Positions 25,021-59,328 of a stretch of DNA of 64,000 nt are shown here, piece by piece. The position numbers and the translations under genes were made by a program. The stretch is taken from NCBI GenBank assembly GCA_019749945.1, contig JAIEPF010000019.1:5747-69746 (forward strand). The letters run 5' to 3'. Source of the DNA: Burkholderiales bacterium (GTDB taxonomy: Bacteria > Pseudomonadota > Gammaproteobacteria > Burkholderiales > SG8-41). The notes under the pieces were generated by a model. It worked only from the letters and a program-made list of their open reading frames with translations. It had not been told where the DNA came from and ran no database searches. Position 1 is the first letter of the stretch. The number at the start of each line of letters is the position of its first letter.

Positions 25021-25048
25021 TCATCTGTTGCGAGGAGCACGAAACACC

Positions 25049-26538: not shown

Positions 26539-27507
26539 ATGCATCACGTCCTGCGTCACCTCATCACCGGCATCGCGCTGCTGCTCGCAACGAGTCTCGG
26601 CTTCGCCCAGGCTTATCCGTCAAAACCGATCCGCTTCCTGGTGCCGAGTCCGGCCGGCGGCTCTCCGGACATCCTCGCGCGCATCGTCGGCGCCCGCCTG
26701 TCGGAGCAGATGAAGCAGCAGGTGATCATCGACAACCGCTCCGGCGCGAGCGGCATCATCGGCGTCGAAATCGTCAAAAACGCGGCACCCGACGGCTATA
26801 CGCTGCTGCTGGCCACCTCAACCATATTTGCCTCGCTGCCGGCACTGAAAAACAATCTGCCCTACGACGTCGAGCGTGATTTCGCACACCTGTCGCGCAT
26901 CGCATGGGTGGCGAATGTCGCCACGGTCAACGCCAACCTCGGTGTCAATTCCGTCGCCGACCTGGTGAAACTGGCCAAAGACAAGCCGGGCGGCCTCAAC
27001 TACGGCTCTGCCGGCAACGGCTCACCGGCGCATCTCGCCGGCGCCATGTTCAACGTGCTGGCCGGTGTAAAAACCACGCATATCCCGTACAAAGGCGCCG
27101 CTCCGGCGATGTCCGACATGATGGGCGGCCAGATCCAGTTTCTGATCACCTCCCCGCTGGTCGCGATGCCGCTCGGCCGCACCGGCCGCATCAAGGTGCT
27201 GGCGACCACCGGCGCGCAGCGCGATCCGCTGCTGCCCGAACTGCCGACGATGGCCGAAACCGTGCCCGGCTACGAAATCGTGCAGTGGTGGGGCGTCTCC
27301 GTGGCCAAAGGCACTCCTGCGGCAATAACCCAGCGGCTGCACAAGGAATTGATGACTGCGCTCAATGCACCCGAGGTCAGGGCCCTGATGAGCAAAAACG
27401 GCGCGACCTCCAACCCGGAGAGTCCCGCCGAATTCATCGCTTTCATGAAAGCCGAACGCGGCCGCATCGCCAACGTCGGCAAACAGGCCGGCATCGTGCT
27501 TGACTGA
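26539..27507 (+). CDS. Bug/TctC-family substrate-binding protein
   Basis: AGGAG RBS. Signal peptide, then AYPSKPIRFLVPSPAGGSPD. Confidence 0.9.
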   Translation: MHHVLRHLITGIALLLATSLGFAQAYPSKPIRFLVPSPAGGSPDILARIVGARLSEQMKQQVIIDNRSGASGIIGVEIVKNAAPDGYTLLLATSTIFASLPALKNNLPYDVERDFAHLSRIAWVANVATVNANLGVNSVADLVKLAKDKPGGLNYGSAGNGSPAHLAGAMFNVLAGVKTTHIPYKGAAPAMSDMMGGQIQFLITSPLVAMPLGRTGRIKVLATTGAQRDPLLPELPTMAETVPGYEIVQWWGVSVAKGTPAAITQRLHKELMTALNAPEVRALMSKNGATSNPESPAEFIAFMKAERGRIANVGKQAGIVLD

Positions 27508-27540
27508 AAAATTTGACCAAGAGTGCATAACAAAACGACC

Positions 27541-27615
27541 TTACCGAGGCCCCTCACCCCAACCCTGCTTTGCTTCAAGTGTTCCCTTGTCTCCCCGCAT
27601 GCGGGGAGAGGGAGA
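27541..27615. repeat. REP-like element with perfect 20-nt palindrome tctccccgcatgcggggaga (27590-27609)
   Basis: ccctcaccccaaccc ... ctccccgcatgcggggagaggg. Related in style to 54100-54222. Confidence 0.6.
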
Positions 27616-27646
27616 CTCTTATTTTGATACGTGCTCTAAAAATGCC

Positions 27647-29134
27647 ATGACCGAGCCCGCCAATCTGATCCTGTTCCAGTCCGACAACCACAACGGCCAT
27701 CTCGCCGGCTGCTACGGCCATCCCCTGGTCAAAACCCCGACCATGGACCGCATCGCCGCGGGTGGCGTGCGTTTTGCCAGCGCCTATTGCAGCAGCCCGC
27801 TGTGCTGCCCGTCGCGCTCCAGCCTCGCCACCGGCCGTTATCCGCACCAGACCGGTTACTGGGACAACGCGCTGACCTACGACGGACGGATGCCGACTTG
27901 GCACCACCGCCTGCGTGAACAGGGCCACAAGGTGACGGCGGTGGGCAAACTGCATTACCGTTCCAGCGAGGACGACAACGGTTTCACCGAGGAAATCGTG
28001 CCCATGCACTTGCATGAGGGCAAGGGTGCGATCAAGAACCTGCTGCGCGGCTACGGCACCGAACCGGCCAAGGACGACGGCAGTTTCTGGAAACTCTATA
28101 TCGAGCGTTCCGGCGTCGGCGCCACGCATTACCAGGACTACGACCGCGACATCACCGCCAAGGCCGTGACCTGGCTGAAGCAGCATGCCCATGCCGGCGG
28201 CAAACCCTGGGTGCTCTATGTGTCCTACATCAGCGCGCATCCGCCGTTCACGGTGCCGCAGCGTTTCTGGGACCTGTATCCGGAGGCGAAGATGCCGCTG
28301 CCGCCCGCGTTCCGCCCGGGGGAACGCCCCGAACATCCCGCCGTCGAGTTCCTGCGTTTCATGGACGGCATGCGCGCGATGACCGATGAAGCCGCGCTGC
28401 GGCGCATCGCCGCCGGCTACTTCGGCCTGATCACCCATCTCGACGAACAGATCGGCGAAGTCCTGAAGTCCGCGGAAGAACTGGGGCTGCTGGGCAATAC
28501 GCGCATTGCCTACACCAGCGACCACGGCGAACTGTTCGGCGCGCAGGGTGTGTTCGGCAAAAAAAACCTCTACGAAGGCGCCATCCGCGTGCCGCTGCTG
28601 ATCGCCGGTCCGGGCGTGCCGCGGGGCCGCGTGGTGCGGCAGCCTGCGTCCCACGTTGACCTGTTCCCGACCCTGGTCGCCGGCGCCGGCGCCCGACTCG
28701 ACGCTGCGGATCACGACCTGCCGGGGATCGACCTGTGGCCGGCGATCGGCGGCACGGAAATCCGGCGCACCGCATTCGCCGAATACCATGCGCAGGGCTC
28801 CAAGGCCGGCGCTTTTGTGCTACGCGACGGCGCAATGAAACTCATCTACCACGTCGGCATGCCGGCACAACTGTTTGATCTCGAAAAAGATCCGGATGAA
28901 ATCAGCGACTTGTCTGCGAACAATCCGGCTGTCGTTCGGGCACTGGAACAAAAACTTCGTGCCATTTGCGATCCGGAAGCCGTCGATGCACGCGCCAAGG
29001 CCGATCAGCGCAAAGCGGCGGATCGTTGGGGAGGTGCTGCAAAACTGCTGGGCGAAACCCAGATCCTGTTCACTCCACCGCCCGGTGTGTCCAAGGAAGA
29101 AGCCTGGAAAATTCCCTCTGGGCAAGGCAGCTAA
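27647..29134 (+). CDS. Cys-type sulfatase, no signal peptide (paralogue of 25049-26506)
   Basis: LILFQSDNHN, CCPSR (CxPxR), SDHGE. Confidence 0.85.
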   Translation: MTEPANLILFQSDNHNGHLAGCYGHPLVKTPTMDRIAAGGVRFASAYCSSPLCCPSRSSLATGRYPHQTGYWDNALTYDGRMPTWHHRLREQGHKVTAVGKLHYRSSEDDNGFTEEIVPMHLHEGKGAIKNLLRGYGTEPAKDDGSFWKLYIERSGVGATHYQDYDRDITAKAVTWLKQHAHAGGKPWVLYVSYISAHPPFTVPQRFWDLYPEAKMPLPPAFRPGERPEHPAVEFLRFMDGMRAMTDEAALRRIAAGYFGLITHLDEQIGEVLKSAEELGLLGNTRIAYTSDHGELFGAQGVFGKKNLYEGAIRVPLLIAGPGVPRGRVVRQPASHVDLFPTLVAGAGARLDAADHDLPGIDLWPAIGGTEIRRTAFAEYHAQGSKAGAFVLRDGAMKLIYHVGMPAQLFDLEKDPDEISDLSANNPAVVRALEQKLRAICDPEAVDARAKADQRKAADRWGGAAKLLGETQILFTPPPGVSKEEAWKIPSGQGS

Positions 29135-46084: not shown

Positions 46085-46403
46085 CAGCAGCAGCGCCGCT
46101 GACCAGTCACGCCATGACAGGATGGATCTAACGATGCCGCCTCCCGATCCACAAATTACGCCGAAAGGTACTCCCTTGACGCCAGAAAGGCAACTAACCC
46201 ATTAAAAATATTGAAGAATTCAGGGGCGCAGCCGCCAGTTGCGCCGCGCCACGGCACCACCCCGGCAGCGCAGCGGGCAAGCATTGCGGACTGAGCCGGG
46301 ATAACATGCCGTGCAACATCGAATCCGATGCACCATCGACCAAAATCGGACATGTGAAAAAACAGGGGCGGGCGCCCCGCGATCACGAATACAAGGTGCG
46401 CCT

Positions 46404-49400
46404 ATGCATTCTCGGAGGGGAGAACCGAAGCGCCGCGCGGCGAAACCCGCCAGTGGCGGTGCTGCGTCTGCCGGTGCTGCCGCCGCAAAAAAAACCGGCG
46501 CCGGGCCGGGGAAGGCAGGCGCCCGCCTGCAGTCCCTGTTCGACCAGATTGCCGTCGGCATCGCCTACACCACCACCGACGGCAGGATCCTCGGCAGCAA
46601 CCGCAAGCTGAGCGAGATGCTGGGTTATTCCGCCGCCGAACTGCTCGGCATGACCACGCGCGACCTGACGCACCCGGAGGATCGCGACCAGCAGGACCAG
46701 ATGCGGCGCGAACTGCTCGACGGCACGCGCAGCCATTTCTCGGGCGAAAAGCGTTATGTGCGCAAGGATGGCAGTGATTTCTGGGTATCCCGGACCGTTG
46801 CACATGCCCAAACCCCCGACGGCGAGCCGTACCTGATCCAGACCATCGACGACATCAACGACCGCAAGCTGGCAGACCAGCGCTCACGGGAAAACGAAAA
46901 ACGCTTCCGTGAAATCTTCGAGCAGGCGGCAGTCGGCATCACCAGGGTCGATCTCGACGGGGTGCTCATCGACTGCAACCAGAAATTCTGCGACCTGCTC
47001 GGTTTTTCCAGGGAAGAACTCCTCGGCAAGCCCATGAGGGGGATCACCCACCCCGATGACTACGGATCCGGCGCGCAGTACCGCACGCAGCTTGCCAGGG
47101 GTGACGGCGGTTCGCGGACCAGCGAAAAACGCTTCATCCGCAAGGACGGCTCGCCTTTATGGGTGCGGCGCACCATGTCCACGGCCTGCGACGCCGCCGG
47201 CAAGCCGCAATACGTCATCAGCATGGTCGAGGACATCACCGACAAAAAGGAACTCGAACAGCATCACAAGGAAACCTTCGATCAGGCCGCCGTAGGCATC
47301 GTGCACACCTCCGCCGACGGCCGCTATCTGCGCGTCAACCGCAAGTTCTGCGAAATGCTCGGCTACAGCGAGGCGGAACTGCTGGGGCGCAAGGCCTCCG
47401 ATTTCAGCCGGCCGGGCGACCGCGAAAACGAAGCCGGCAACCGGCAACGCATGTGGCAAGGACAACTCGGCAATTTTGCCGAAGAAAAACAATACGTCCG
47501 CAAGGACGGCAGCATCGTCTGGACCAACCGCACGGTGTCCCTGGCCCGCGATGCTTCGGGCAAACCGCTTTATTTCATCAGGGTCATCGAAGACATCACC
47601 GCCCGCAAGGAAGCCGACCTGCGTTACCGCGCGACCTTCGACAGCGCTCCGATCGGCATCATGCACACGGCGGTCGATTCTTACCGGATCCTGCACGTCA
47701 ATCCCAAACTGTGCGCGATGCTCGGTTACACCGAAAACGAATTGCTGAACATGAGCAGCACCGACATCGTCCATCCGGATTACCGGTTCACCGACGGTGC
47801 CAAATACCAGAAACCGATGCTGAAGGGCGAAGCCTCCTCCTATTCCTCGGAACGGAAATTCCTGCGCAAGGACGGCTCCGCCTTCTGGGTCAACCGCACG
47901 GTGTCGCTGGCGCGCGATGCGTCTGGCACGCCGCTCTACTACATCCGGATCATCGAAGACATCACCGAGCGCAAGCAGGCCGAAGAAGTCATCGTCCGCG
48001 AACGCGCCCTGCTGCGCACCATCATCGACACCCTTCCCGATCACATTTACGCCAAGGACAAAAACGGGAACTACCTGATCGCCAACAAGAGCTGGCTCGG
48101 CGCCCGGGGCACGCAGGATACCGATGTATCCGGAAAAACCGTCAATGACTTTTTCCCGCCAAAACTGGCCGAAATCCTGGCCAGCCAGGACCGCGAAATC
48201 ATCCAGACCGGGAAACCGTTGCGGAACCCCGAACACAAACTGATGATCGAGCACACGGAAAATCAAAACGAACCGGGCAAAATCCGCTGGGGTTCGACGC
48301 TGAAAGTGCCGTTGCGGACTGCCGACGGGGAAATCATCGGCACCGTGGGCATCAGCCGCGAGATTACCGAAGAGAAGGAAGCCGCAGCCAGGCGCACCAT
48401 GTCGCATGCGGTGACGCAGGTGCTGGCAGAGTCGCTGACGGTCGCCGAAGCCATGCCCCGGATCATCGGCACCATGTGCGAGGCGATGGGATGGGCCTAT
48501 GGCGCGCGATGGGCGCTGGACGACACAGGACAGCGACTCTCGCGCATTGAATACTGGTGTGCATTCGAGCCGGAATTCGACCCGGCTGACCGGGAGCTGT
48601 GGCTGAGCGTCGGCAACACCGGCAGCGGACGCCTGCTGCGGCGTGCCTGGATCGACAAAACCGCCTCCTGGCTGGCCAACCTGCACGACGACAAGCCGTT
48701 TCGGCGCAGGGCCAGCACCATCAGATTCGGCTGGCGCAGCGCCTATGCCTTCCCGATCCTGATCGGCAGTGATGTGGTCGGCATCATGGAATTTTTCGGG
48801 CCCGACAGCCGGGAACCGGATGAAGCGCTGGTGCAGACCACGGTCTCGATCGGCAGCCAGATCGGGCAGTTCATCCAGCGCAAACAGGCCGAGGACAAAC
48901 TGAGTTTTCTGGCGCGTTTCGACACCGTCACCAACCTGCCGAACCGGTATCTGTTCACCGACCGTCTGGGCCAGATGCTGGCACAGGCAAAGCGCAACAA
49001 CTGGTCGACAGGCGTCCTGTTTGTCGATCTCGACCGCTTCAAGGCAGTCAACGACACCTATGGCCATGCCGCCGGCGACCAGTTGCTGCGCGAGGCCGCC
49101 GCGCGCATGCAGGCCTGCGTGCGCAACAGCGACACCGTCGGCCGGCTGAGCGGAGACGAGTTTGCGGTGATGCTGTCGAACCTGGCGAAAACCGAGGACG
49201 CCGGCATGATCGCGCAGAAAATCGTGGAGGCGCTGGCGGCGCCGTTCGACATCAACGGCAACCAGGCCCATATTTCAGCCAGCATCGGCATCGCCCTCTA
49301 TCCGAGCGATGGCAACGAACCCGACACCCTGCTGAAAAACGCCGACACCGCGATGTACCGGGCGAAATCGCAGGGACGCAACGGTTATCAATTCTTTCTG

Positions 49401-50642
49401 CCGCAAATGAACGAGCGGCTGATCCAGCGCCAGCAGCTCGAAGCACAACTGCACGGCGCGCTGGAGCGCAGGGAATTCCTGCTGCATTACCAGCCCAAGG
49501 CCGAGCTCGAGAGCGGCTCGGTCACCGGATTCGAAGCCCTGCTGCGGTGGCAGAACGGCGACACGCTGGTTCCGCCGGTCGAATTCATCGCCGTCCTCGA
49601 AGATACCGGCCTGATCGTGCCTGTCGGCGAATGGATCCTGAACAGCGTATGCGCGCAGCTCAAGCAGTGGGAACAGCAGGGCGTCGCCCTGCGCCCGGTT
49701 GCAGTCAATCTTTCAGCCCGCCAGTTCCAGGTCAAGAACCTGGTGGAGGTGGTGGGACAGGCCCTGCGCAGCCACAACGTCAATCCCGCCCTGCTCAAAC
49801 TGGAACTGACCGAATCGCTGCTGATGAGTGATGCGCAGGAGTCCGTCGAGACCCTGCATCAGCTGAAGGAACTGGGCGTGCAGCTTTCGGTCGACGATTT
49901 CGGCACCGGATATTCGAGCCTCGCCTATCTCAAACGTTTCCCGCTGGACGAACTCAAGATCGACCGTGAATTCATCCGCGATGCGATCAATGACCCCGAT
50001 GACGCCGCGATCACGGTCACCATCATCAACCTCGCCCACAGCCTGAAGCTGCGCGTCGTGGCCGAAGGCGTGGAGAGCGAAGGCCAGCTCAATTTTCTGC
50101 GGTTTCACGGCTGCGACGAAATCCAGGGCTTTTATTTAGCGCCCCCCCTGCCGGCGGATGCCTGCGCGCGCCTGCTTGCGGAAGACAAACGCCTGCCGCA
50201 GCTGCAGCACCCTGTGACCCGCGAACCCTCGCTGCTGCTGGTCGTCGAAAACGAAAACGAACTGCGCTTGCTGATGCAGGCTTTTTCTTCCGGCGGCTTC
50301 CGCGTCCTGAGCGCAAGAAACGCCAGTGACGGCTTTGAAATCCTCGCCGGCAACCGGATCGATATCGTGATCAGCGACAACGACATGACGGGGATGAGCG
50401 GCATCCAGTTCCTGACGCGGGTGCGCAAACTGTATTCCAACACCCTGCGCGTGCTGGCCTCGAGCGGTGACGACACCCCCACCCTGACCCGCGCCACCAA
50501 CATGGCCGGCATCCACCTGTTCCTGCCCAAGAACTGGACCGCGGAACGGCTGCGCATCGAGGTGCGCAACGCCCTGCAAAATTACATGGATGTCACGAAC
50601 ACCAGCGGCCCGCATCCAATACTCAAATCAAAGAAAGATTAG
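46404..50642 (+). CDS. multidomain c-di-GMP signalling protein: multiple PAS, GAF, GGDEF (SGDEF), EAL, C-terminal receiver
   Basis: Repeated PAS/PAC blocks (...EKRY/F.RKDGS..W...), RNSD I-site plus SGDEF, EALLRW/DDFGTGYSSL/EGVE, REC with DIVISDNDMTGMSG. Confidence 0.9.
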   Translation: MHSRRGEPKRRAAKPASGGAASAGAAAAKKTGAGPGKAGARLQSLFDQIAVGIAYTTTDGRILGSNRKLSEMLGYSAAELLGMTTRDLTHPEDRDQQDQMRRELLDGTRSHFSGEKRYVRKDGSDFWVSRTVAHAQTPDGEPYLIQTIDDINDRKLADQRSRENEKRFREIFEQAAVGITRVDLDGVLIDCNQKFCDLLGFSREELLGKPMRGITHPDDYGSGAQYRTQLARGDGGSRTSEKRFIRKDGSPLWVRRTMSTACDAAGKPQYVISMVEDITDKKELEQHHKETFDQAAVGIVHTSADGRYLRVNRKFCEMLGYSEAELLGRKASDFSRPGDRENEAGNRQRMWQGQLGNFAEEKQYVRKDGSIVWTNRTVSLARDASGKPLYFIRVIEDITARKEADLRYRATFDSAPIGIMHTAVDSYRILHVNPKLCAMLGYTENELLNMSSTDIVHPDYRFTDGAKYQKPMLKGEASSYSSERKFLRKDGSAFWVNRTVSLARDASGTPLYYIRIIEDITERKQAEEVIVRERALLRTIIDTLPDHIYAKDKNGNYLIANKSWLGARGTQDTDVSGKTVNDFFPPKLAEILASQDREIIQTGKPLRNPEHKLMIEHTENQNEPGKIRWGSTLKVPLRTADGEIIGTVGISREITEEKEAAARRTMSHAVTQVLAESLTVAEAMPRIIGTMCEAMGWAYGARWALDDTGQRLSRIEYWCAFEPEFDPADRELWLSVGNTGSGRLLRRAWIDKTASWLANLHDDKPFRRRASTIRFGWRSAYAFPILIGSDVVGIMEFFGPDSREPDEALVQTTVSIGSQIGQFIQRKQAEDKLSFLARFDTVTNLPNRYLFTDRLGQMLAQAKRNNWSTGVLFVDLDRFKAVNDTYGHAAGDQLLREAAARMQACVRNSDTVGRLSGDEFAVMLSNLAKTEDAGMIAQKIVEALAAPFDINGNQAHISASIGIALYPSDGNEPDTLLKNADTAMYRAKSQGRNGYQFFLPQMNERLIQRQQLEAQLHGALERREFLLHYQPKAELESGSVTGFEALLRWQNGDTLVPPVEFIAVLEDTGLIVPVGEWILNSVCAQLKQWEQQGVALRPVAVNLSARQFQVKNLVEVVGQALRSHNVNPALLKLELTESLLMSDAQESVETLHQLKELGVQLSVDDFGTGYSSLAYLKRFPLDELKIDREFIRDAINDPDDAAITVTIINLAHSLKLRVVAEGVESEGQLNFLRFHGCDEIQGFYLAPPLPADACARLLAEDKRLPQLQHPVTREPSLLLVVENENELRLLMQAFSSGGFRVLSARNASDGFEILAGNRIDIVISDNDMTGMSGIQFLTRVRKLYSNTLRVLASSGDDTPTLTRATNMAGIHLFLPKNWTAERLRIEVRNALQNYMDVTNTSGPHPILKSKKD

Positions 50643-50664: not shown

Positions 50665-50712
50665 TTCGCTTTTCCATCCTCACTCCTCAATCCTCAATCC
50701 TCACTCCTCACT
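50665..50712. repeat. heptad-like array TCACTCC/TCAATCC (single arm) between convergent genes
   Basis: atcctcactcctcaatcctcaatcctcactcctcac. No complementary arm found upstream. Confidence 0.55.
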
Positions 50713-51919
50713 AGCAGTTACCCCCCGCCGCAACCCCCGAAGCCCAGGCCCACTGGAAGTTGTAGCCCCCCAGCCAGCCCGTCACATCGACCACCTCGCC
50801 GATGAAATAAAGCCCCGGCACGCTGCGCGCCTCCAGCGTCTGCTGTGACAGCGCATCGGTGTCCACGCCGCCCAGCGTGACCTCGGCCTTGGCGTAACCC
50901 AGTGTACCCGAGGGCTGGATCGGCCAGCCCTTCAACGTCTGCGCGATGGTGGCGAGCGTTGCGTTCGACAGTTGCGCCAGTGGCTGGGTCCAGCCGTGGA
51001 GTTCGGCAAAGCTGATCGCAAAGCGCCGCGGCAGATGCTCCGCCAGCAGCGCGCCCAGCGCCTGCTGATCCCGGCGATGTTCATTGAGCCACGCGCCCGC
51101 ATCCAGATCGGGCAGCAGATCCATCGCCACCGGCCCGCGTGCACCACCCTGCTGCCAGTACGAAGACACCTGCAATATCGAAGGCCCCGACAGACCGCGA
51201 TGGGTGATCAGTGCCGCCTCGCGAAACGCCGGATAGTCCGCGCCGCGCGGCACTTCGACACAGGACATCACCGCATCGAACGACGAACCGGACAGGGCAC
51301 CGAACTGCGCCAGCCACTCCGGCGGCAGGGCCAGCGGCACCAGCGCGGGTTTGGGCGGTACGATGTTCAAGCCGAATTGTTCGGCAAGACGGTAACCAAA
51401 GGGAGTCGCGCCAATTTTCGGAATCGACAGCCCGCCGGTGGCCACCACCAGCGCATGGCTGCGGTAAGTACCCTGCGTGGTTGCCACTGCAAACCCCGGC
51501 GTATCGCCTGCGATACGCGTCACCTGCGCCACCGTCACCGGCATCGCCCACTGCACACCCGCGGCATCACATTCCGCTTTCAGCATGGCGATGATCTGCT
51601 GCGCGCTGTCATCGCAAAACAGCTGGCCGAGGTTGCGCTCGTGATAGCTGATGTTGTGGCGCTCGACCAGCGCAATAAAATCGCGCGGCGTATACCGCGC
51701 CAGGGCGGAGCGGCAGAAATGCGGATTGCGCGACAGGAAATTGCGCGGCCCGACGTCGCGATTGGTGAAATTGCAGCGACCGCCGCCGGAGATGCGGATT
51801 TTTTCAGCGAGGGTTGTGGCGTGATCGACTAGCAATACGCGCCGCCCGCGCTGCCCGGCCGTGGCGGCGCACATCATGCCGGCGGCGCCGGCACCCAGAA
51901 CGATGACATCAAAATCCAT
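50711..51919 (-). CDS. HI0933/YhiN-family NAD(P)/FAD-dependent oxidoreductase
   Basis: FDVIVLGAGAAGMMCA, ISGGGRCNFTN, GEVVDVTGWLGGYNFQWAW. Confidence 0.85.
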   Translation of the reverse strand: MDFDVIVLGAGAAGMMCAATAGQRGRRVLLVDHATTLAEKIRISGGGRCNFTNRDVGPRNFLSRNPHFCRSALARYTPRDFIALVERHNISYHERNLGQLFCDDSAQQIIAMLKAECDAAGVQWAMPVTVAQVTRIAGDTPGFAVATTQGTYRSHALVVATGGLSIPKIGATPFGYRLAEQFGLNIVPPKPALVPLALPPEWLAQFGALSGSSFDAVMSCVEVPRGADYPAFREAALITHRGLSGPSILQVSSYWQQGGARGPVAMDLLPDLDAGAWLNEHRRDQQALGALLAEHLPRRFAISFAELHGWTQPLAQLSNATLATIAQTLKGWPIQPSGTLGYAKAEVTLGGVDTDALSQQTLEARSVPGLYFIGEVVDVTGWLGGYNFQWAWASGVAAGGNC

Positions 51920-52136
51920 GTGCGGCCTGCGGCTGAGGGGAGCGCATCATACCGCGCCGTGTCGGTCCGGCAAGTTTTGCCCGCACCCTGAGCGGGTGGC
52001 TCCATTGATGTGTCAACACGAACAATTGTTGCAATAATTTCAATTTACTCAAGAGTTTGCGGGCCGGATAATGGCATGCAAATCGCGGGCACAGCCTCAT
52101 CACAAAAGCAGCCGCCGCAAACCCGGAGGAGTTTTG

Positions 52137-53102
52137 ATGAACATCACACGCACGCTGCGGCCCGCACTGATGGCCGCCCTGCTCATCGTGCCGCCCGCCG
52201 CAACCGCCGCGGCTTACCCGGAGCGCCCGGTGCGCATCGTGGTGCCGGTTTCGGCCGGCGGTGGTGTCGACAGTCTGGCGCGGCTGATCGGCCAGCACTT
52301 CAATGCGGTGTGGGGCCAGCCCTTTATTGTCGACAACCGGCCCGGCGCCGGCGGCAGCCTGGGTGCGGAAATCGCCGCGCGCGCAGCCCCCGACGGCTAC
52401 ACGCTGATGGTGAGCAGCAGCAGTTACATCACCAATGCCGCGATCCGCAGCGTGCGTTATGACCCGATCCGCGATTTCCAGCCGATCACCAAACTCACCA
52501 CCAATCCGTACATCATCGTGGTCACGCCCTCGCTGCCGGTGAAATCCGTCAGTGACCTCATCGCGCTGGCCAAGGCCAAACCCGACACGGTGACCTACGC
52601 CTCGTCGGGCACCGGCGGCATCCTGCACATGGGTGCGGAACTGCTCACCGCCCTCACCCATACCAAAATGACCCATGTGCCGTACAAGGGTGTGGCCGAT
52701 GGTTATCCCGCGGTGATCTCCGGCCAGGTCAACTGGATGCTGGGCAGCCCGATCTCCGCGCAGCCGTTGATCAAAGCCGGCCGCATGCGCGGCATCGCCG
52801 TGACCACCGAGAAACGCTTAAAGGCATTACCTGATCTGCCGACCATCGCCGAAACCGTGCCCGGTTATGAAGTCAGTGCCTGGTTCGGCCTGTTTGCGCC
52901 GGCGAAACTCCCGGCCCCTATCGTCGAGCAGCTGTACAAGGAGGCGGCCAAGGCGGTCACCGAGCCGAAGGTGCTGGCGCGCATGGATGCCGAAGGCACC
53001 GAGATTGTCGCCAACCCGCCGCAGGAATTCACGCAGCAGGCGAAAAACGAATTCGACAAATGGCGCGGACTGGTCAAAAAGACCGGACTGAAACTGGAAT
53101 AA
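52137..53102 (+). CDS. Bug/TctC-family substrate-binding protein
   Basis: GGAGGA RBS. Signal peptide, then AYPERPVRIVVPVSAGGGVD. Confidence 0.9.
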   Translation: MNITRTLRPALMAALLIVPPAATAAAYPERPVRIVVPVSAGGGVDSLARLIGQHFNAVWGQPFIVDNRPGAGGSLGAEIAARAAPDGYTLMVSSSSYITNAAIRSVRYDPIRDFQPITKLTTNPYIIVVTPSLPVKSVSDLIALAKAKPDTVTYASSGTGGILHMGAELLTALTHTKMTHVPYKGVADGYPAVISGQVNWMLGSPISAQPLIKAGRMRGIAVTTEKRLKALPDLPTIAETVPGYEVSAWFGLFAPAKLPAPIVEQLYKEAAKAVTEPKVLARMDAEGTEIVANPPQEFTQQAKNEFDKWRGLVKKTGLKLE

Positions 53103-53107
53103 TCACC

Positions 53108-54070
53108 ATGAACAAAACCATCGCCCTGCTCTGCACACTGCTGCTCGCCGCAACGGCAGTCCACGCGCAGACCTTTCCAAGCAAACCCATCCGCTTCATC
53201 GTGCCGTCCTCTGCCGGCGGCGGCAACGATTACCTGGCGCGCCTCTTTGGCGCCAAGATCACCGAGAACTGGGGCCAGCAGGTGCTGGTGGATCTGCGCC
53301 CGGGTGCGGCCGGCATCCTCGGCTCCGAGATCGTCGCCAAGGCGCCGCCCGACGGCCACACCATCCTGATCGTCGCCACCGGTTACGGGTTGAACCCCAG
53401 CCTCTACGCCAAGCTGCCCTACGACACCATCGAGGATTTCGCGCGCGTGAACCTGCTCGCGTTTTCGCCCAATGTGCTGGTGGTGCATCCTTCGCTGCCG
53501 GTGAAATCGGTCAAGGAACTGATCGCGCTCGCCAAGTCGCGCCCCGGCGAACTCAACTACGCGTCCTCCGGCGCCGGCACCGGCGGCCACCTGTCGATCG
53601 AGCTGATGAAGTACATGGCGAAGATCAACATGGTGCATATCCCGTACAAGGGCGCGGGCGACGCCACCATGGCCGTGGTCAGCGGCCAGGTGCACATGCT
53701 GATGACGGCGCCGGGTGCCGCGATTCCATTCATCAAGGCCGGCCGCCTGCGGCCGCTGGCGGTGGGCTCGGCGAAACGCGTCAAGGCGCTGCCCGAGGTG
53801 CCGACCATGGCCGAGGCTGCGCTGCCGGGCTACGAAGTTGACGGCTTCTACGGCATTCTCGCGCCGGGCAAAACACCGCGCACCATCGTCGACAGGCTGT
53901 ATGCCGAATTCGACCGCATCCTGAAGCTGCCGGATGTGATCCAGCAACTGGAAGCTCAGGGCTTTGAACCGGTCAGTTATACGCCGGAGAAATTCACCGA
54001 ATACGTCAAAAAAGAAATGCAGAAATGGCCGCCGGTGTTCAAGGCGGCGGGGATCAAGGTTAATAATTAA
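53108..54070 (+). CDS. Bug/TctC-family substrate-binding protein (tandem with the previous gene)
   Basis: Signal peptide, then QTFPSKPIRFIVPSSAGGGND. Confidence 0.9.
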   Translation: MNKTIALLCTLLLAATAVHAQTFPSKPIRFIVPSSAGGGNDYLARLFGAKITENWGQQVLVDLRPGAAGILGSEIVAKAPPDGHTILIVATGYGLNPSLYAKLPYDTIEDFARVNLLAFSPNVLVVHPSLPVKSVKELIALAKSRPGELNYASSGAGTGGHLSIELMKYMAKINMVHIPYKGAGDATMAVVSGQVHMLMTAPGAAIPFIKAGRLRPLAVGSAKRVKALPEVPTMAEAALPGYEVDGFYGILAPGKTPRTIVDRLYAEFDRILKLPDVIQQLEAQGFEPVSYTPEKFTEYVKKEMQKWPPVFKAAGIKVNN

Positions 54071-54099
54071 GAGCGCGTAACAAAATCGAGGGTAAGCGT

Positions 54100-54222
54100 A
54101 GTTAACCACCCCCATCCCCGCCTTCCCCCTGAAGGGGAAGGAGTATCCATGGAATTCCCTCCCCTTCAGGGGGACAAGGGCACACTTGGAGCGAAGCAGG
54201 GTTAGGGTGGGGGTGGTATGAG
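54100..54222. repeat. REP-like composite palindrome (outer ccacccccatcccc / ggggtgggggtgg; inner ccttcccc-ctgaa-ggggaagg)
   Basis: Nested inverted repeats read directly from the sequence. Confidence 0.65.
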
Positions 54223-54290
54223 CACAAGTCAATCAACGTCATCAAAAGCAATCGTAATAAACTGGCAGCACATTTTCTGAAGGAGCAGTC

Positions 54291-54836
54291 ATGGCCAAGA
54301 TATTCCTGGTGGTACCGGATGCGCCGGTTGAAGCGGCCGCAGAACTCAAATCCAGTCGCACGCTCGGCAACGCCGGCATCCGCCTCGGCGTGCTCGACAA
54401 CAGCAAGGGCAATGCCGACCATCTGCTGAACCTGATCATCGAAGGCGTCAAAAAAGATTTCAAGGTCGATTCGGTGGTGATGACGCGCAAACCCTTTTCC
54501 AGCAAACCCGCGACGGATGCCATCCTCGACCAGCTGGCGAAGGAGGCAGACCTCGTCGTCAGTGCCATGGCCGATTGAGGGTCGTGCACGTCGTGGAGTG
54601 TCCACGACATGGCGCAGTTGACCAAACGCGGCCTCCTGGCCGCCGTGGTGGTTTCGGATTCATTCATGAAACTGGGCAAGGCGCAGGCCAAGGTGTTCGG
54701 CGTGCCTGATCTGCCTTTGCTCGAGATCAAACATCCGCTGGGCGGGCTCAACATGGACCAGGTGCGTGAACGCGCGGCCGTGGCCATGCCGCAGTTGCTG
54801 AAGTTCATCAATACGGCCAAAGAGAAACAAGCATGA
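54291..54836 (+). CDS. candidate selenoprotein with U-G-S-C motif (in-frame UGA at 54576-54578 read as Sec)
   Basis: ORFs 54291-54578 and 54609-54836 share one frame and are separated only by TGA. AAGGAG RBS. SECIS-like hairpin 11 nt after the UGA. Joined sequence ...VVSAMAD-U-GSCTSWSVHDMAQLTKRG... Confidence 0.7.
54590..54608 (+). promoter_or_regulatory. SECIS-like stem-loop
   Basis: gtcgtgga-gtg-tccacgac, a perfect 8-bp stem starting 11 nt after the UGA. Loop G and U fall at +23/+24 counted from the U of UGA. Confidence 0.6.
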
Positions 54837-55948
54837 GCGCCATCACCACCCTGCTGCAAAAACCCGGTGCACTGATCGAATGCGACGACGACCCGGAAGC
54901 AGTGTTCGACCTGCTCTGCGCCAAAGGCTGGAGCGACGGCTTCCCCGTGATCCCGCCGACACCCGAGCGCGTCGAACGCATGCTGGCTTATTGCGATCGC
55001 GACTTCGACGAACCCGTGATCAAGATCCCGCCGCGTTTTGGCGCGGCCACACCAATCCGCATCGCCGCCAATGCAGTGATGGCCGGCTGCAAACCGGAAT
55101 ATTTTCCGCTGGTGCTGCTGGCGCTGGAGACGCTTGCCGAAGATCAATACAACCTCTACGGCACGCAGGCGACGACACACCCCTGCACACCGCTGCTGAT
55201 TTTCAACGGCCCGGTGGCGCGCGAAGTCGGCATCAATGCCGGCCACAACGTGATGGGCAATTATTTCCGCGCCAATGCCACCATCGGCCGCGCGGTGCGC
55301 CTGGCACTGGTCAACATCGGCGCCGCCATCCCCGGCACCGGCGACATGGCCACGGCGGGCACGCCGGCGAAATGGAGCTTCTGCGTCGCCGAGAACGAAG
55401 CCGCCAGCCCCTGGGAACCGCTGCACGTGGAAATGGGCTACGCCAAAGACACCACCACCGTCACCGTGGTTGCCGCCGAAAGCCCACACAACGTCAACGA
55501 CCACGAAAGCCTGACGCCGGAAGGCATCCTGCGCATGGTCTCGGGCACCATGGCCACGACGGGATCGAACAACGCCTATTACGCGGGACAGCCGGTGCTC
55601 GCCTTCGGCCCCGAACACGCCGCCACGGTCGCAAGCCGCGGCATGACCAAGGCCCAGGTCAAACAATGGCTGTACGACGACGCCGTGATCCCGCTGTCGC
55701 GATTCTCCGAAGAAACCATCGCACGGCGCTTCCGCCGCAGAAACGCCGAACAATACGCCAACGCCCCGCTCGACACACCCGTGCACATGTGGCAGAAACC
55801 CGATGACCTGATCATCATCGTCGCGGGCGGCGCCGGCAAACACTCGCAATACATACCGACCTTCGGCATCACGCGTGCCGCGACCCGGCCGCTGAAACGC
55901 GCGGATGGCGAACTGGTGAAATCAATCGAGGAATTGAAGCGCGGATAG
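54833..55948 (+). CDS. conserved hypothetical protein (371 aa), ATGA-coupled to the UGA-containing gene
   Basis: Start ATG overlaps the upstream TGA stop (gcATGAgc). Clear coding composition. No family recognised. Confidence 0.75.
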   Translation: MSAITTLLQKPGALIECDDDPEAVFDLLCAKGWSDGFPVIPPTPERVERMLAYCDRDFDEPVIKIPPRFGAATPIRIAANAVMAGCKPEYFPLVLLALETLAEDQYNLYGTQATTHPCTPLLIFNGPVAREVGINAGHNVMGNYFRANATIGRAVRLALVNIGAAIPGTGDMATAGTPAKWSFCVAENEAASPWEPLHVEMGYAKDTTTVTVVAAESPHNVNDHESLTPEGILRMVSGTMATTGSNNAYYAGQPVLAFGPEHAATVASRGMTKAQVKQWLYDDAVIPLSRFSEETIARRFRRRNAEQYANAPLDTPVHMWQKPDDLIIIVAGGAGKHSQYIPTFGITRAATRPLKRADGELVKSIEELKRG

Positions 55949-56007
55949 CGCGGAAGGCGCGATCCACTACGTTCCCCCCGTCCTGCAAAAATCTGCACTG
56001 CTACCTC

Positions 56008-56126
56008 GTAGGGCGGGTGATTACCCGCCGGTCCGCCGTTGTCATGCACGACGCAGTCGTGCCCTGCTGATTTCTTGCCAACAAACATCCGGCGGATAAC
56101 GCCGCAAGGCGGCTCATCCGCCCTAC
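56008..56126. repeat. REP-like element bounded by gtagggcgg ... ccgccctac
   Basis: Outer 9-bp inverted repeat plus internal hairpins (gcacgacgcagtcgtgc; ggcggataacgccgcaaggcggctcatccgcc). Confidence 0.6.
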
Positions 56127-56146
56127 GCACTCCACGCATCAACAAT

Positions 56147-56216
56147 AAGGGCGGCGCATCACTGTGATGCACCGCCCTCAGATTATTTATAAGTATTTGA
56201 TTTTATTGTATTTTTA
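56147..56216 (+). repeat. GC hairpin (gggcggcgcatcac-t-gtgatgcaccgccc) followed by AT-rich dispersed element copy E (IHF core at 56190-56202, minus orientation)
   Basis: Same hairpin-plus-AT-rich arrangement as copies A and F. Confidence 0.6.
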
Positions 56217-56246
56217 GACAAATACTCTATACCCGGATCCAGCGAC

Positions 56247-56366
56247 TTACTTCCTGATCGGATCCATCGGCTTGGGCTTGAGAAACCCGCCCGCCACCGG
56301 CACGGCTTTTTTGTCCTTCTTGGGTTTTTTCTGTTCCTTGTTGCTGCGTTGCTGACCTTTGGCCAT
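56247..56366 (-). CDS. small basic protein (39 aa)
   Basis: MAKGQQRSNKEQKKPKKDKKAVPVAGGFLKPKPMDPIRK, preceded by AAGGAGA 6 nt upstream. Not in the ORF track (too short). Confidence 0.5.
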   Translation of the reverse strand: MAKGQQRSNKEQKKPKKDKKAVPVAGGFLKPKPMDPIRK

Positions 56367-56438
56367 GGTGTTCTCCTTGTGGTTACTGCATGTTAAGGCA
56401 ATTCACAAAGCGAAAGGAGGAAAACGCAGAAATGGGTT

Positions 56439-56870
56439 TTACAGCGGTTTGAGTTTTTTCAGCGCAGCGGCCACCGCTTTGCTTGCCGCAAGCAAATCCG
56501 CAAGCAGGCGATCATCAATATTCAAATCGCCCTCGTATTCGCCAAGGTTTCTCACCTCGTGGCATTTAGCCAGTACGCGCCAGACCTCAGCGCCCAAACC
56601 CAAGGTATGCGGTAGTACCTGAAACACGATGTAACGATTGGCAGCACGATAACCATGCCACCGGAGTGCGGCCAGGCACAAGGCATGCGCCGCGTTGTAA
56701 GCGAGATCGAAGCGCCCTTCCAAAGAAAGCCCTGTATTGGCAGCGTCATCCAGACGCGCCAGCCCCGAACGCTGCAAGCCTGAAAATTCCTTCGCATCCG
56801 GCGGCTCCAGCCGCAAGGGTTTGCCCGAACCGCTGAGCAACTCAAGCGGCGAGGCCAACCAATTCTCCAA
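56439..56870 (-). CDS. HEPN-domain protein (putative toxin of a HEPN/MNT pair)
   Basis: Rx4-6H motif RVLAKCH followed by EVRN..EYEG. Overlaps the upstream MNT gene. Confidence 0.6.
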   Translation of the reverse strand: MENWLASPLELLSGSGKPLRLEPPDAKEFSGLQRSGLARLDDAANTGLSLEGRFDLAYNAAHALCLAALRWHGYRAANRYIVFQVLPHTLGLGAEVWRVLAKCHEVRNLGEYEGDLNIDDRLLADLLAASKAVAAALKKLKPL

Positions 56871-57504
56871 TCACCGGCAACCGGGGTTGCGACCACACGC
56901 GCCGGACAAAAGCATTGTCCGCGCGCACCCGCTTGTCGAGCTCCTTGCGGGTATACACCGTCGGATTCACCTTGCGCCCGAGCCGGCCCTCCGCTTCCTG
57001 CAGCGCCGCATACAGATCAGCGTGAGACAAGGCATCACTCACCACCATCAGGTCAATATCACTCGCGGCAGTGTCTTCACCCTTGGCCACTGAGCCATAC
57101 ACAAACGCACTCTCAAAGCGCGCTGCCAATGGCTGCAAGGCCGCACGCAGCACATCCACCAGCCCCGAGGTCTTCAATACCAGCCCGCGCAGTTCGGCAT
57201 AAACCGCCGACGCGGCATTGGCCTGATAGTGTTTCTGGTTGCCCACGCGAGTGGCCGTCACCAAGCCGGACGCCTCGAGTCGTGCAAGCTCGCGCTGCAC
57301 CGCGCCGGTACCCGACTCTGCGAGAACGATGATCTCGTTGGCATAAAAACTCCGCCCCGGATTGCCAAACAGCACGGCGAGCACCCGTTGCTGCACCTTG
57401 GTGAACAAGGCATCGGCCACGCCCACAGCGGCTGGGGCCTTGGTCTTGAGTGTTTTCTTAATTCCCATATTGGGTATGATAAACCCCAATATGGGTATCT
57501 TCAA
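56842..57504 (-). CDS. winged-HTH plus minimal nucleotidyltransferase (MNT) protein
   Basis: ArsR-like wHTH (SFYANEIIVLAESGTGAVQRELARLEASGLV), then GSVAKGEDTAASDIDLMVV. Start uncertain (TTG 57504 or ATG 57468). Confidence 0.7.
   Translation of the reverse strand: MKIPILGFIIPNMGIKKTLKTKAPAAVGVADALFTKVQQRVLAVLFGNPGRSFYANEIIVLAESGTGAVQRELARLEASGLVTATRVGNQKHYQANAASAVYAELRGLVLKTSGLVDVLRAALQPLAARFESAFVYGSVAKGEDTAASDIDLMVVSDALSHADLYAALQEAEGRLGRKVNPTVYTRKELDKRVRADNAFVRRVWSQPRLPVIGELVGLAA
57464..57495. promoter_or_regulatory. inverted repeat CCCATATTGGG-N10-CCCAATATGGG at the 5' end of the wHTH-MNT gene (candidate operator)
   Basis: Perfect 11-bp arms read from the sequence. Confidence 0.45.
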
Positions 57505-57614: not shown

Positions 57615-58580
57615 TCAATCGACCGTAATCCCGGTCGCCTTCACCAGCTTGGTGAAGCGCTCGACCTCGCTCTTGATGTGCGCGGCGAACTGCTCCGGCG
57701 TGCCGCCCACCGCATCGAAACCCATCTTTTTCAAGGCGCCACTCACATCAGGCAACGCCAGGGCTTTCGCGGATTCGGCATTGACGCGGCTGACGATGGC
57801 CGCAGGTGTACCCGCGGGTGCCAGCAGGCCGAACCACGACGTCACCTCAAAACCCGGATAACCGGCCTCGGTCATCGTCGGCAGTTCGGGCATCAGCGGC
57901 GCGCGTTTCGGCGTCGTGACCGCGAGCACCCGCGCCTTGCCCGATTTGGCGTGCGGCTCGATGCCGACCACGGTAAAGAACATCACCGACACCTCGCCGC
58001 TCAAGAGCCCGGTCAGCGCGGGGGTGGTGCCCTTGTACGGCACATGCACCAGCTTGATGCCCGCCATCATGTTCAGCAGCTCGCCGCTCAGGTGATGGGT
58101 GCTGCCGTTGCCGGCGGAACCGTAGTTGAGATCACCCGGCCGCTTCTTGGCCAACGCGACCAGTTCCTTCACGTTCTTCACCGGCAGCGACGGGTGCGCC
58201 GTCAGCACATAGGGTGTGGAGGCGATCAGGATGATCGGCGAGAAATCCTTGATCGCATCGTAGGGCAGCTTTTTATACACCGCGGGGTTGGAGCCGTGCG
58301 TGGAATTGTTGGCCATGAACAGCGTATAGCCGTCGGCCGGCGAGCGCGCCGCCGCTTCAGTGCCGACCGCACCGCCGGCGCCCGGCCGCGCCTCGATCAC
58401 AAACTGCTGGCCCATCTGCCCAGCGAGCTTGGCAGTCAGCACCCGGCTCACGTTGTCCGTTGCGCTGCCCGGCGCCTGCGCAATCAGGATGCGGATCAGT
58501 TTTGTGGGATAAGTCTGAGCCACAGCGGGTTGCGCCATCAGTGCGGCGATGCAGGTGAACATCGGGAATTGAATACGCAT
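57615..58580 (-). CDS. Bug/TctC-family substrate-binding protein
   Basis: AGGAGGAG RBS. Signal peptide, then QTYPTKLIRILIAQAPGSATD. Confidence 0.9.
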   Translation of the reverse strand: MRIQFPMFTCIAALMAQPAVAQTYPTKLIRILIAQAPGSATDNVSRVLTAKLAGQMGQQFVIEARPGAGGAVGTEAAARSPADGYTLFMANNSTHGSNPAVYKKLPYDAIKDFSPIILIASTPYVLTAHPSLPVKNVKELVALAKKRPGDLNYGSAGNGSTHHLSGELLNMMAGIKLVHVPYKGTTPALTGLLSGEVSVMFFTVVGIEPHAKSGKARVLAVTTPKRAPLMPELPTMTEAGYPGFEVTSWFGLLAPAGTPAAIVSRVNAESAKALALPDVSGALKKMGFDAVGGTPEQFAAHIKSEVERFTKLVKATGITVD

Positions 58581-58614
58581 TGCTCCTCCTTTTTTATAGA
58601 AAATTTGCGCCATG

Positions 58615-59328
58615 TTATCCGGAATCCGCGGCAAGCGCCGCGATTGCCTCAATGCGAGCACGAACGCGACGAACCCGATCCCCGTGAATCTCGTCATAGG
58701 TCACCAGGCCCGGCAGCGTATTGGAAAAATCCGCATGCTGCGCAATCTCGCCGAAACGAGCGGACAGGTAATGCATCAGATCAGCTGCGGCAGCAGCCAC
58801 CTCAGCTTCGATACCGGGGCGACCATCCAGCACATGGATGATGTCCTCGAAATCGTGACTCGATAACAGATCGCCCCGGCCGCGCGTTGCAAACGCTTCG
58901 AGCTTGGTTGCCAGAAAAGCGGGCGCCGGGATCAGGCGGATCAGCCGACCACTGGGCAGCGCGACGCGCAAAGCACCCGCGATGGCATGCGGATACCAGC
59001 GATTCGAAAACCCGAGAATTTTTTCCTCGCTCGGCATCAGGTCAACACACAGATCCCGCAAGCGCCAGCGGCAGATCGGCGCATCCTGCGAAACATCGCG
59101 TGTGAAGCCCCGCTGCTCGAACCGCTTTTCCAGCGCGTAATACTCGGCCAGCGCAGCTACCTCGGCCACCACATCCACATCAAAGGTCACGCGCGGCGGC
59201 GCAGCAGCGAGCGACGTACACAACAGCCCTGCAGCACAGCCACCGACCAGCACCACCTCATCACACAAATCGCCCAGCGCCTGCGCGACCACCTCAACCG
59301 ACTGAACATTGGGATCGAGCGGATTCAA
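58615..59328 (-). CDS. nucleotidyltransferase-fold protein, AbiEii-like (putative type IV TA toxin)
   Basis: LVGGCAAGLL...RVTFDVDVV resembles the GGxAL...RxSxDxD NTase signature. 4-nt overlap with the upstream wHTH gene. Confidence 0.5.
   Translation of the reverse strand: MNPLDPNVQSVEVVAQALGDLCDEVVLVGGCAAGLLCTSLAAAPPRVTFDVDVVAEVAALAEYYALEKRFEQRGFTRDVSQDAPICRWRLRDLCVDLMPSEEKILGFSNRWYPHAIAGALRVALPSGRLIRLIPAPAFLATKLEAFATRGRGDLLSSHDFEDIIHVLDGRPGIEAEVAAAAADLMHYLSARFGEIAQHADFSNTLPGLVTYDEIHGDRVRRVRARIEAIAALAADSG

Follow-up and report, generated by a model that had tools for sequence, protein, structure and literature searches.

In the glycine and D-proline reductase systems (grd/prd), a selenoprotein subunit with a U-x-x-C motif works alongside another subunit that binds the substrate, and an operon-encoded thioredoxin-reductase system recycles it. 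The UGSC selenoproteins were reported in the Global Ocean Sampling data, where 255 selenocysteine (Sec) forms and 21 Cys forms placed them among the most abundant families (PMC2398784). In the same study UGSC was the top selenoprotein family in several non-marine samples, a fusion of UGSC with a conserved domain, 'Unknown_1', was reported in 2008, and a thioredoxin-like fold was suggested (PMC2398784). A review from 2026 lists UGSC among the selenoproteins whose biological functions are largely uncharacterised (PMC13188914), and a first-pass annotation of the present locus likewise took the function to be uncharacterised. Here we describe a UGSC gene and the gene that follows it in a stretch of 64,000 nucleotides from a Burkholderiales genome (contig JAIEPF010000019.1, positions 5,747 to 69,746), which we call the window and to which the coordinates below refer. 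The UGSC gene almost certainly encodes a real selenoprotein with a selenocysteine insertion sequence (SECIS), and the 371-amino-acid product of the following gene is very probably an obligate UGSC partner, so that both would form one functional unit. The features of this two-gene module were as follows.

54281..54285, + strand: Shine-Dalgarno sequence AGGAG, 5 nt before the UGSC start codon, read from the sequence
54291..54836, + strand: UGSC-family selenoprotein gene of 181 codons, one of them for Sec, with hidden Markov model (HMM) matches on both sides of the TGA
54576..54578, + strand: predicted UGA selenocysteine codon, residue 96 and first position of U-G-S-C, at a TGA/Cys column in homologues
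54585..54587, + strand: codon of Cys99, probably the resolving cysteine of U-x-x-C, with conservation of at least 90% in two alignments
54590..54608, + strand: putative SECIS hairpin inside the UGSC coding sequence, 8-bp stem and GUG loop, from folds, covariation and the loop GU
54833..54836, + strand: ATGA in which the UGSC stop and the partner start overlap, read from the sequence and suggesting translational coupling
54833..55948, + strand: partner gene (371 amino acids) of an unnamed family, from linkage and fusions, with no Pfam, NCBIfam or PDB relative

The first-pass annotation had joined two open reading frames (ORFs) through a TGA. The frame that starts at ATG 54291 passed through the in-frame TGA at 54576-54578 and ended at a stop TGA at 54834-54836, and reading through the first TGA did give one 181-amino-acid product with the motif A-D-U-G-S-C-T (...SAMAD-U-GSCTSWSVHD...). 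With U replaced by C, this product matched NCBIfam NF041046, 'UGSC family (seleno)protein', with 128.2 bits against a cut-off of 125 (profile positions 2-145 of 147) and Pfam PF24696, 'UGSC', with 152 bits against a cut-off of 25 (positions 9-170 of 172); both matches crossed the TGA. The family identity proposed in the first-pass annotation was thus borne out at both curated cut-offs, and the gene is, by its sequence, an ordinary split (two-gene) member of an already known family. For comparison with other genomes, 80 genomic loci were fetched through the partner protein and combined with locus L001 and the window to give 82 loci, in which UGSC homologues were found by searching a UGSC profile against six-frame translations that read through TGA. 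Among 88 aligned UGSC homologues, the Sec column held TGA in 81, TGC or TGT in five and other codons in two, which were divergent paralogues, and each of the 81 TGA forms had a single TGA within the aligned region. The alignment of homologues with U replaced by C thus crossed the UGA at a column occupied by Sec or Cys, in keeping with the recoding first proposed. The 82 loci spanned more than 10 phyla, with carriers in Beta-, Alpha-, Gamma- and Deltaproteobacteria, Methylomirabilota, Binatia, Chloroflexota, Actinomycetota, Bacillota and archaea; the Cys forms included Natrialba asiatica and a Methanobacteriaceae metagenome-assembled genome.

Full-length database homologues of about 181 amino acids, several of them named 'UGSC family (seleno)protein' by NCBI, had GDCGSC or GDCGAC at the Sec position, and the Sec column was Cys in at least 90% of those aligned. 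One database protein of 186 amino acids (P0275) had Trp at this column (A-D-W-G-S-C), most probably because its gene had been predicted with a code in which TGA stands for Trp; it shows that Sec codons are hidden in some database 'homologues'. The conserved second Cys of the motif was replaced by Ser in some sub-families (L054:20667-20957(-), L070:6040-6498, L049:6356-6868 and L067:9440-9934), whose motifs were G-H-U-G-S-S-(A/T)-P-W-T and D-U-G-T-S-A-S-I-S and, in a Cys form, D-C-G-T-S-T-S-M-T. These sub-families indicated that the selenenylsulfide pair is not universal in the family.

The hairpin GTCGTGGA-GTG-TCCACGAC at 54590-54608, which the first-pass annotation had described as a bacterial SECIS of the Escherichia coli fdhF type, had a perfect 8-bp stem and a 3-nt loop and was found in minimum free energy and centroid folds alike. 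In a 71-nt context its single-sequence folding energy was uninformative (z = -1.17); the evidence for the hairpin therefore comes from comparative data and not from folding energy. When 77 distinct Sec-form sequences were aligned from the TGA (stem columns 15-22/26-33), 92% of the stem cells were paired, against 18-49% with the 3' partners slid, and six of the eight stem pairs had changes on both sides. Four of the five measures gave values that none of 500 shuffles reached; for the fifth, 4 shuffles did so. Many of the stem changes were both double and synonymous (such as TCG/CAC to TCA/CAT). Others went with amino-acid changes and gave quite different stems at the same site, as in L077 (CGTGCA-GTG-TGCACG), L069 (GTCGGGCA-GTG-TGCTCGAC), L056 and L049 (CCATCAGC-GTG-GCTGATGG), the last displaced by one codon. 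The loop G-U was present in 71 of the 77 Sec forms and missing from all five Cys forms, and AGT, a minority codon in the operon of the window (8 of 60 Ser codons), encoded the loop Ser in 66 of the Sec forms.

Compared with the E. coli fdhF-type SECIS, the hairpin was alike in lying directly 3' of the UGA in the coding sequence, 11 nt past it, with the loop G and U at +23/+24 (U of UGA counted as 1). It was unlike the strict fdhF mini-helix in that its perfect 8-bp stem with a 3-nt loop had no bulged U. A bulged U in the upper stem is needed for E. coli SelB and need not hold for other SelB proteins. Rfam searches gave only chance-level matches, both for the whole window at the gathering threshold and for 54480-54720 at E<=10. 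Taken together, the comparative data supported the hairpin as a conserved, co-varying, Sec-specific element that would act as a bacterial SECIS and a predicted SelB site; the spacing and loop positions given in the first-pass annotation stood and were joined by covariation, and a strict copy of the mini-helix was not found. Divergent UGSC paralogues (U-G-[SA]-C-[TS]-P-A-V), which lay beside divergent partner paralogues in L039:16286-16780, L017:13613-14023 and L029:12223-12510, had another type of hairpin past the TGA, which in L039 and L017 was GCCCGC...GCGGGC with GU in the loop, in a register that differs from the main type.

The 371-amino-acid gene begins, as the first-pass annotation had it, within the ATGA overlap, with ATG 54833 lying over the UGSC stop. 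The linkage of this gene with UGSC homologues that the annotation had suggested was found across genomes: UGSC adjoined the partner in 78 of the 82 loci. In most of these it came directly before the partner in the same orientation; a few Chloroflexota and Methylomirabilota had it downstream. Two of the exceptions (L018 and L043) end at a contig end, which leaves 78 of 80 testable loci; L073 had a frameshifted partner, and L081 was truly without an adjacent UGSC. In L001, the order of a gene for a TctC-type solute-binding protein, UGSC and partner was kept amid unrelated flanks. Furthermore, 56 of the best 150 partner representatives were fused to UGSC, in both domain orders. Eighteen of these fusions were full-length, and most of their Sec-column motifs picked by pattern were Cys (GDCGSC, GDCGNC, ADCGSC). 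In 33 others the post-Sec part stood alone at the N-terminus, which is the trace that Sec-containing fusions leave when gene callers cut them short; four had the reverse order and ended with ...GD or ...AD right before the Sec codon, and one was partial. The ATGA-coupled pair of the window is therefore a two-gene version of a protein that commonly occurs as a single chain. The 'Unknown_1' fusion domain of 2008 is probably the partner family. On Chloroflexota contigs, three UGSC-partner modules, all with Sec, lay within about 5-10 kb, back-to-back in L025:7323-12717 and over 10 kb in L017:9986-20473; this suggests a paralogous expansion, perhaps for different substrates.

The first-pass annotation had been unable to assign the 371-amino-acid protein to any family, and our searches agreed. 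There was no match in Pfam-A or NCBIfam even at E<=10, no family common to even two of 36 diverse members scanned singly for weak Pfam matches, and no match of the family profile to PDB sequences (best E 0.55). An AlphaFold2 model of the partner had a predicted local distance difference test score (pLDDT) of 80.7 and a predicted template modelling score (pTM) of 0.84, and a Foldseek search of this model against the PDB found no significant neighbour (best E 0.011, template modelling score (TM) <=0.24). Class I fumarate hydratase, Toblerone-fold amidohydrolases, IRG1/PrpD and HypE/SelD were rejected as fold candidates, being weak and mutually inconsistent (TM<=0.24). The family contained at least 7,970 proteins by word-indexed search, and an exhaustive search at E<=1e-3 returned 5,171 cluster representatives (50% identity), 1,265 of which also passed E<=1e-30; relatives, where named, were all 'hypothetical'. 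In 257 diverse domains, Asp35, Gly36, Gly85, Thr115, Gly126, Asn148, Arg153 and Glu187 were near-universal, and Cys86 and Cys184 were present in 241 and 225 domains, respectively. Cys118, which lies in the locally invariant GTQATTHPCTP, was present in 74 domains and kept among close relatives only, and the idea of a pyruvoyl enzyme (a PrdA/GrdE analogue cut before Cys118) was rejected on this ground. Two proteins (P0174, 741 amino acids; P0210, 717 amino acids) had two tandem partner-type domains per chain without a UGSC domain. In alphaproteobacterial loci, a second divergent partner paralogue (about 205-285 bits) directly followed the partner (L044:11073-12035, L059:11192-12115, L061:2826-3788, L068, L071, L074, L075, L076 and L080), and the main partner match was shortened to about 270 amino acids in most of them; this UGSC-partner-partner2 arrangement may be a heteromeric enzyme.

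A structural model of UGSC was built with AlphaFold2 on Cys-form homologues (P0271; pLDDT 91.4, pTM 0.87) and showed a parallel, doubly-wound sandwich with the order b-a-b-a-b-a-b-a-b. In it, the Sec column (C94 of P0271) lay between strand 86-92 and helix 95-110, at the junction of strand 3 and helix 3, which puts the redox motif at a helix N-terminus in the model. Its best PDB neighbours were generic proteins of flavodoxin-like or Rossmann-like type, namely azoreductase, flavodoxin-like domains, RpiB, MccF and FtsZ (TM<=0.45); a search of UGSC against PDB sequences found no relative. The model places UGSC in the flavodoxin-like alpha/beta fold class, and the thioredoxin fold suggested earlier (PMC2398784) was ruled out by the model topology and the fold search. 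Beyond D-U-G-x-C, the conserved UGSC residues were Asn37, Lys39, Lys67, Asp106, Gly114, Phe125 and His148-Pro149, mostly just past predicted strands.

A link to thioredoxin reductase (TrxR) came from partner fusions. In P0170, the partner was fused to a low-molecular-mass (low-Mr) TrxR-type module (PF07992, CAVCD). About 26 distinct 90% clusters covered the full 695 amino acids of this fusion at 64-100% identity, and a second set of partner-TrxR fusions, some on Mb-scale contigs, aligned at 37-40% identity and 92-97% coverage, which indicated that P0170 is not a chimera. In L082 and L083, a Sec-form UGSC gene (FDUGSCSSWS and GDUGSCTSWS) with a hairpin in register lay directly upstream of the partner-TrxR fusion, in L082 with an ATGA overlap as in the window. 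Separate TrxR-like genes (CAHCD) occurred in the operon in L028, L029, L076 and L080, in the order TrxR, UGSC, partner, and also in L039.

The commonest other neighbour family was TctC, in 23 loci. In the window, the first-pass annotation had placed two tandem TctC-type genes upstream of the module, and both matched PF03401 (E about 1e-63). The upstream features were as follows.

52010..52072, + strand: candidate promoters, two overlapping sigma-70-like matches ahead of the first TctC gene, by consensus match only
52071..53102, + strand: first TctC/Bug-family periplasmic solute-binding protein gene, PF03401, 214.8 bits
53060..54070, + strand: second TctC/Bug-family periplasmic solute-binding protein gene, PF03401, 217.3 bits

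The actual start of the second TctC gene may lie downstream of 53060. No other promoter-like match was found on the + strand in 51800-56400; the position of the sigma-70-like matches solely ahead of the first TctC gene is consistent with TctC-TctC-UGSC-partner being a unit of four genes, which probably starts at these matches. An ORF antisense to the module, 54242-55849 (-), is a shadow ORF in this 62% G+C genome. Rarer neighbours in other loci were family-III CoA-transferase (CoA_transf_3), MmgE/PrpD, enoyl-CoA hydratase, SDR, acyl-CoA dehydrogenase (ACAD), acyl-CoA synthetase, thiolase and TAXI/TRAP transporters. Because carboxylate solute-binding proteins and acyl-CoA enzymes lie nearby, a carboxylate or its coenzyme A (CoA) ester is the best guess for the substrate, one that we offer with low confidence.

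From these observations we propose the following mechanism. The hairpin that begins 11 nt past UGA 54576 would help to decode this codon as selenocysteine. The flavodoxin-like UGSC protein would carry Sec96-x-x-Cys99 where strand 3 passes into helix 3, a pair that could alternate between the selenol/thiol and selenenylsulfide forms. NAD(P)H would reduce the flavin adenine dinucleotide (FAD) and CxxC of a low-Mr TrxR-type flavoprotein, which in turn would reduce the Sec96-Cys99 selenenylsulfide. The partner would bind the substrate via Arg153, Glu187, Asn148, Thr115 and Asp35 and usually has two conserved cysteines (Cys86 and Cys184); the UGSC selenolate would either reduce this cysteine pair or attack the partner-bound substrate directly. 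The substrate may be a small carboxylate or its CoA ester, taken up here via the two TctC proteins encoded upstream. The enzyme would thus be a two-subunit selenoenzyme in the window and a one- or three-domain protein elsewhere. A physical UGSC-partner complex, the electron flow, the reductase chemistry and the substrate class are inferred, and the redox reading is strengthened by the thioredoxin-reductase fusions. A Sec-containing UGSC with an obligate partner, recycled by TrxR and acting on a carboxylate-type substrate, is on balance the probable explanation of the whole, and an NAD(P)H/TrxR-driven reductase is, by a narrow preference, the chemistry that we favour. We put forward more tentatively that UGSC, the partner and a TrxR-type flavoprotein (fused, adjacent or distant) might constitute an unrecognised, widespread class of NAD(P)H-dependent selenoenzymes that act on imported carboxylates or CoA esters, with a catalytic-subunit fold that has no solved relative.

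Several observations weigh against this explanation. The tRNA scan, the Rfam scan and inspection of 10 large ORFs found neither tRNA-Sec nor sel genes within the 64-kb window, so that the Sec-decoding capacity of the genome is inferred and the case for Sec decoding at this locus is built on comparison of sequences. The hairpin lies within conserved coding sequence (T-S-W-S-V-H-D), and its conservation is thus partly protein-driven; three of the five Cys forms, which were the only five sequences in the control, retained 7 of the 8 pairs. Either partner cysteine was missing in about 6-12% of members, and together with the U-G-S-S and U-G-T-S sub-families this indicated that a selenenylsulfide/disulfide relay is not universal; since the second Cys and the partner cysteines are dispensable in some members, Sec is probably the sole indispensable residue. 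The partner model was least confident (113-117, 138-144 and 170-180) at the most conserved motifs. TrxR-like genes lay near the module in only 6 of 80 scanned loci (L028, L029, L039, L044, L076 and L080), and none was found in the window; most modules would therefore need a reductase encoded elsewhere. Finally, the neighbouring catabolic families are very common in these lineages, which makes the substrate inference weak.

Non-reductive chemistry of the UGSC-partner pair is possible. The pair might be a Sec-dependent isomerase or lyase, or a chalcogen-transfer system (a persulfide/perselenide relay) in which UGSC is a carrier like DsrE/TusD and the partner the acceptor enzyme. Such roles would agree with the flavodoxin-like alpha/beta fold of UGSC, which is no thioredoxin fold, with the sub-families (HUGSS, DUGTS) that keep Sec and lose the resolving Cys, and with the missing dedicated reductase gene at most loci. 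However, the partner is repeatedly found in one chain with a disulfide reductase that depends on NAD(P)H and has its CxxC intact, and no DsrE/Tus structures were among the top 50 fold matches listed for UGSC; we regard this alternative as unlikely.

An antioxidant or detoxifying system like AhpF/AhpC, in which electrons pass from NAD(P)H through TrxR, UGSC and the partner to a peroxide or other reactive species, would explain the TrxR-fusion architecture, with its apparent resemblance to AhpF and NTRC-type systems. Bacterial selenoproteins with UxxC are, moreover, mostly thiol oxidoreductases (PMC2398784, PMC13188914). However, the operon context consisted of solute-binding proteins and acyl-CoA/carboxylate enzymes with no stress genes, the partner had no similarity to any peroxidase family in the Pfam, PDB profile and Foldseek searches, and its invariant Arg/Glu/Asn/Thr set suggests specific small-molecule binding. 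We consider such a role quite improbable.

The reading of the TGA as a real stop, giving two small proteins (95 amino acids, and 75 amino acids from ATG 54609), a pseudogene or a sequencing error, would match the in-frame ATG after the hairpin and the public gene calls that split likewise (for example, 95- and 76-amino-acid products in L001), but it fails because an in-frame ATG occurred within 19 codons past the TGA in only 22 of 77 Sec forms, single HMMs cover both halves and TGA is also the ordinary stop of the gene, and with TGA at the Cys-aligned column in 81 homologues across phyla, Cys forms and fusions that are continuous polypeptides and a downstream hairpin that co-varies, it is effectively refuted by the comparative data.

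Other genes of the window surround the four-gene unit. An HI0933-like FAD flavoprotein gene (PF03486, PF22780) at 50711-51919 (-) is transcribed divergently from the unit and is the sole flavoprotein gene close to the module in the window; it is not kept beside the module in L001 and is for this reason probably unrelated. About 100 nt past the partner stop codon, a hairpin at 56046-56062 (+), GCACGAC-GCA-GTCGTGC, was followed by a T-rich tract and could be the operon terminator; in the terminator scan it fell short of the T-run criterion. Further downstream, a third TctC-family gene lay on the opposite strand at 57615-58697 (-), beside an ORF at 56842-57504 (-) with nucleotidyltransferase matches (PF01909, Pol-beta-type) and a weak DUF7342 match. 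Farther away, 46311-50642 (+) encoded a 1,443-amino-acid signalling protein with multiple PAS domains and with GAF, GGDEF, EAL and a C-terminal receiver domain, and two paralogous choline-sulfatase/arylsulfatase-like genes, both under the equivalog cut-offs, lay near each other at 25028-26506 (+) and 27500-29134 (+). At 2562-4013 (-) and 4630-6924 (-), a UbiD-family decarboxylase gene adjoined a gene for the large subunit of a molybdenum hydroxylase of the xanthine dehydrogenase family, which was 4-hydroxybenzoyl-CoA-reductase-like; this pair looks like an aromatic-acid metabolism cluster.

The UGSC gene itself is not new, as both the family and the fusion with an unknown domain have been on record since 2008 (PMC2398784) and the NCBI pipeline already has a name for such proteins, and as an ordinary member the gene of the window leaves existing knowledge unchanged. 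The partner is the lead worth pursuing, as a very large unnamed family with no solved structural relative that is tied to UGSC and TrxR. With it, 'function unknown' gives way to a concrete, testable reductase hypothesis for UGSC, and the recurrent TrxR fusion names the probable electron donor. If true, this would be the first function for one of the most abundant environmental selenoprotein families. Cultured carriers that could serve for genetics include Robertmurraya sp. 2P01SA, Vineibacter terrae, a Blastococcus sp. and, with a Cys form, Natrialba asiatica.

Among known systems, glycine and D-proline reductase (GrdB/PrdB, PF07355) would be alike in combining a UxxC subunit, a separate substrate-binding subunit and recycling by TrxR. 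Homology of UGSC with GrdB/PrdB found no support at the sequence level, with no PF07355 match even at E<=10 and no relative among PDB sequences. The UGSC partner is also unrelated to the PrdA/GrdE pyruvoyl proproteins, having no Pfam match and Cys118 in only 74 of 257 domains, and the UGSC lineages are aerobic or facultative and not Stickland fermenters. AhpF, NTRC and the TrxR-Trx fusions likewise have a low-Mr TrxR with CxxC (here CAVCD or CAHCD) joined to or beside a presumed acceptor, whereas in the UGSC modules the fused acceptor is an unnamed partner domain and the carrier, UGSC, is separate and flavodoxin-like. The closest match remains the known UGSC family (NF041046, PF24696; Zhang and Gladyshev, PMC2398784), from which the window gene differs in no respect of kind, being a split member in a freshwater-type Burkholderiales genome; the model here does not support the thioredoxin-like fold that had been guessed in print. 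The gene shares with that family the U-G-S-C motif and passes both HMM cut-offs, and the homologues showed the same large excess of Sec over Cys forms as in ocean and freshwater metagenomes and the same fusion to an unknown domain in some organisms (PMC2398784).

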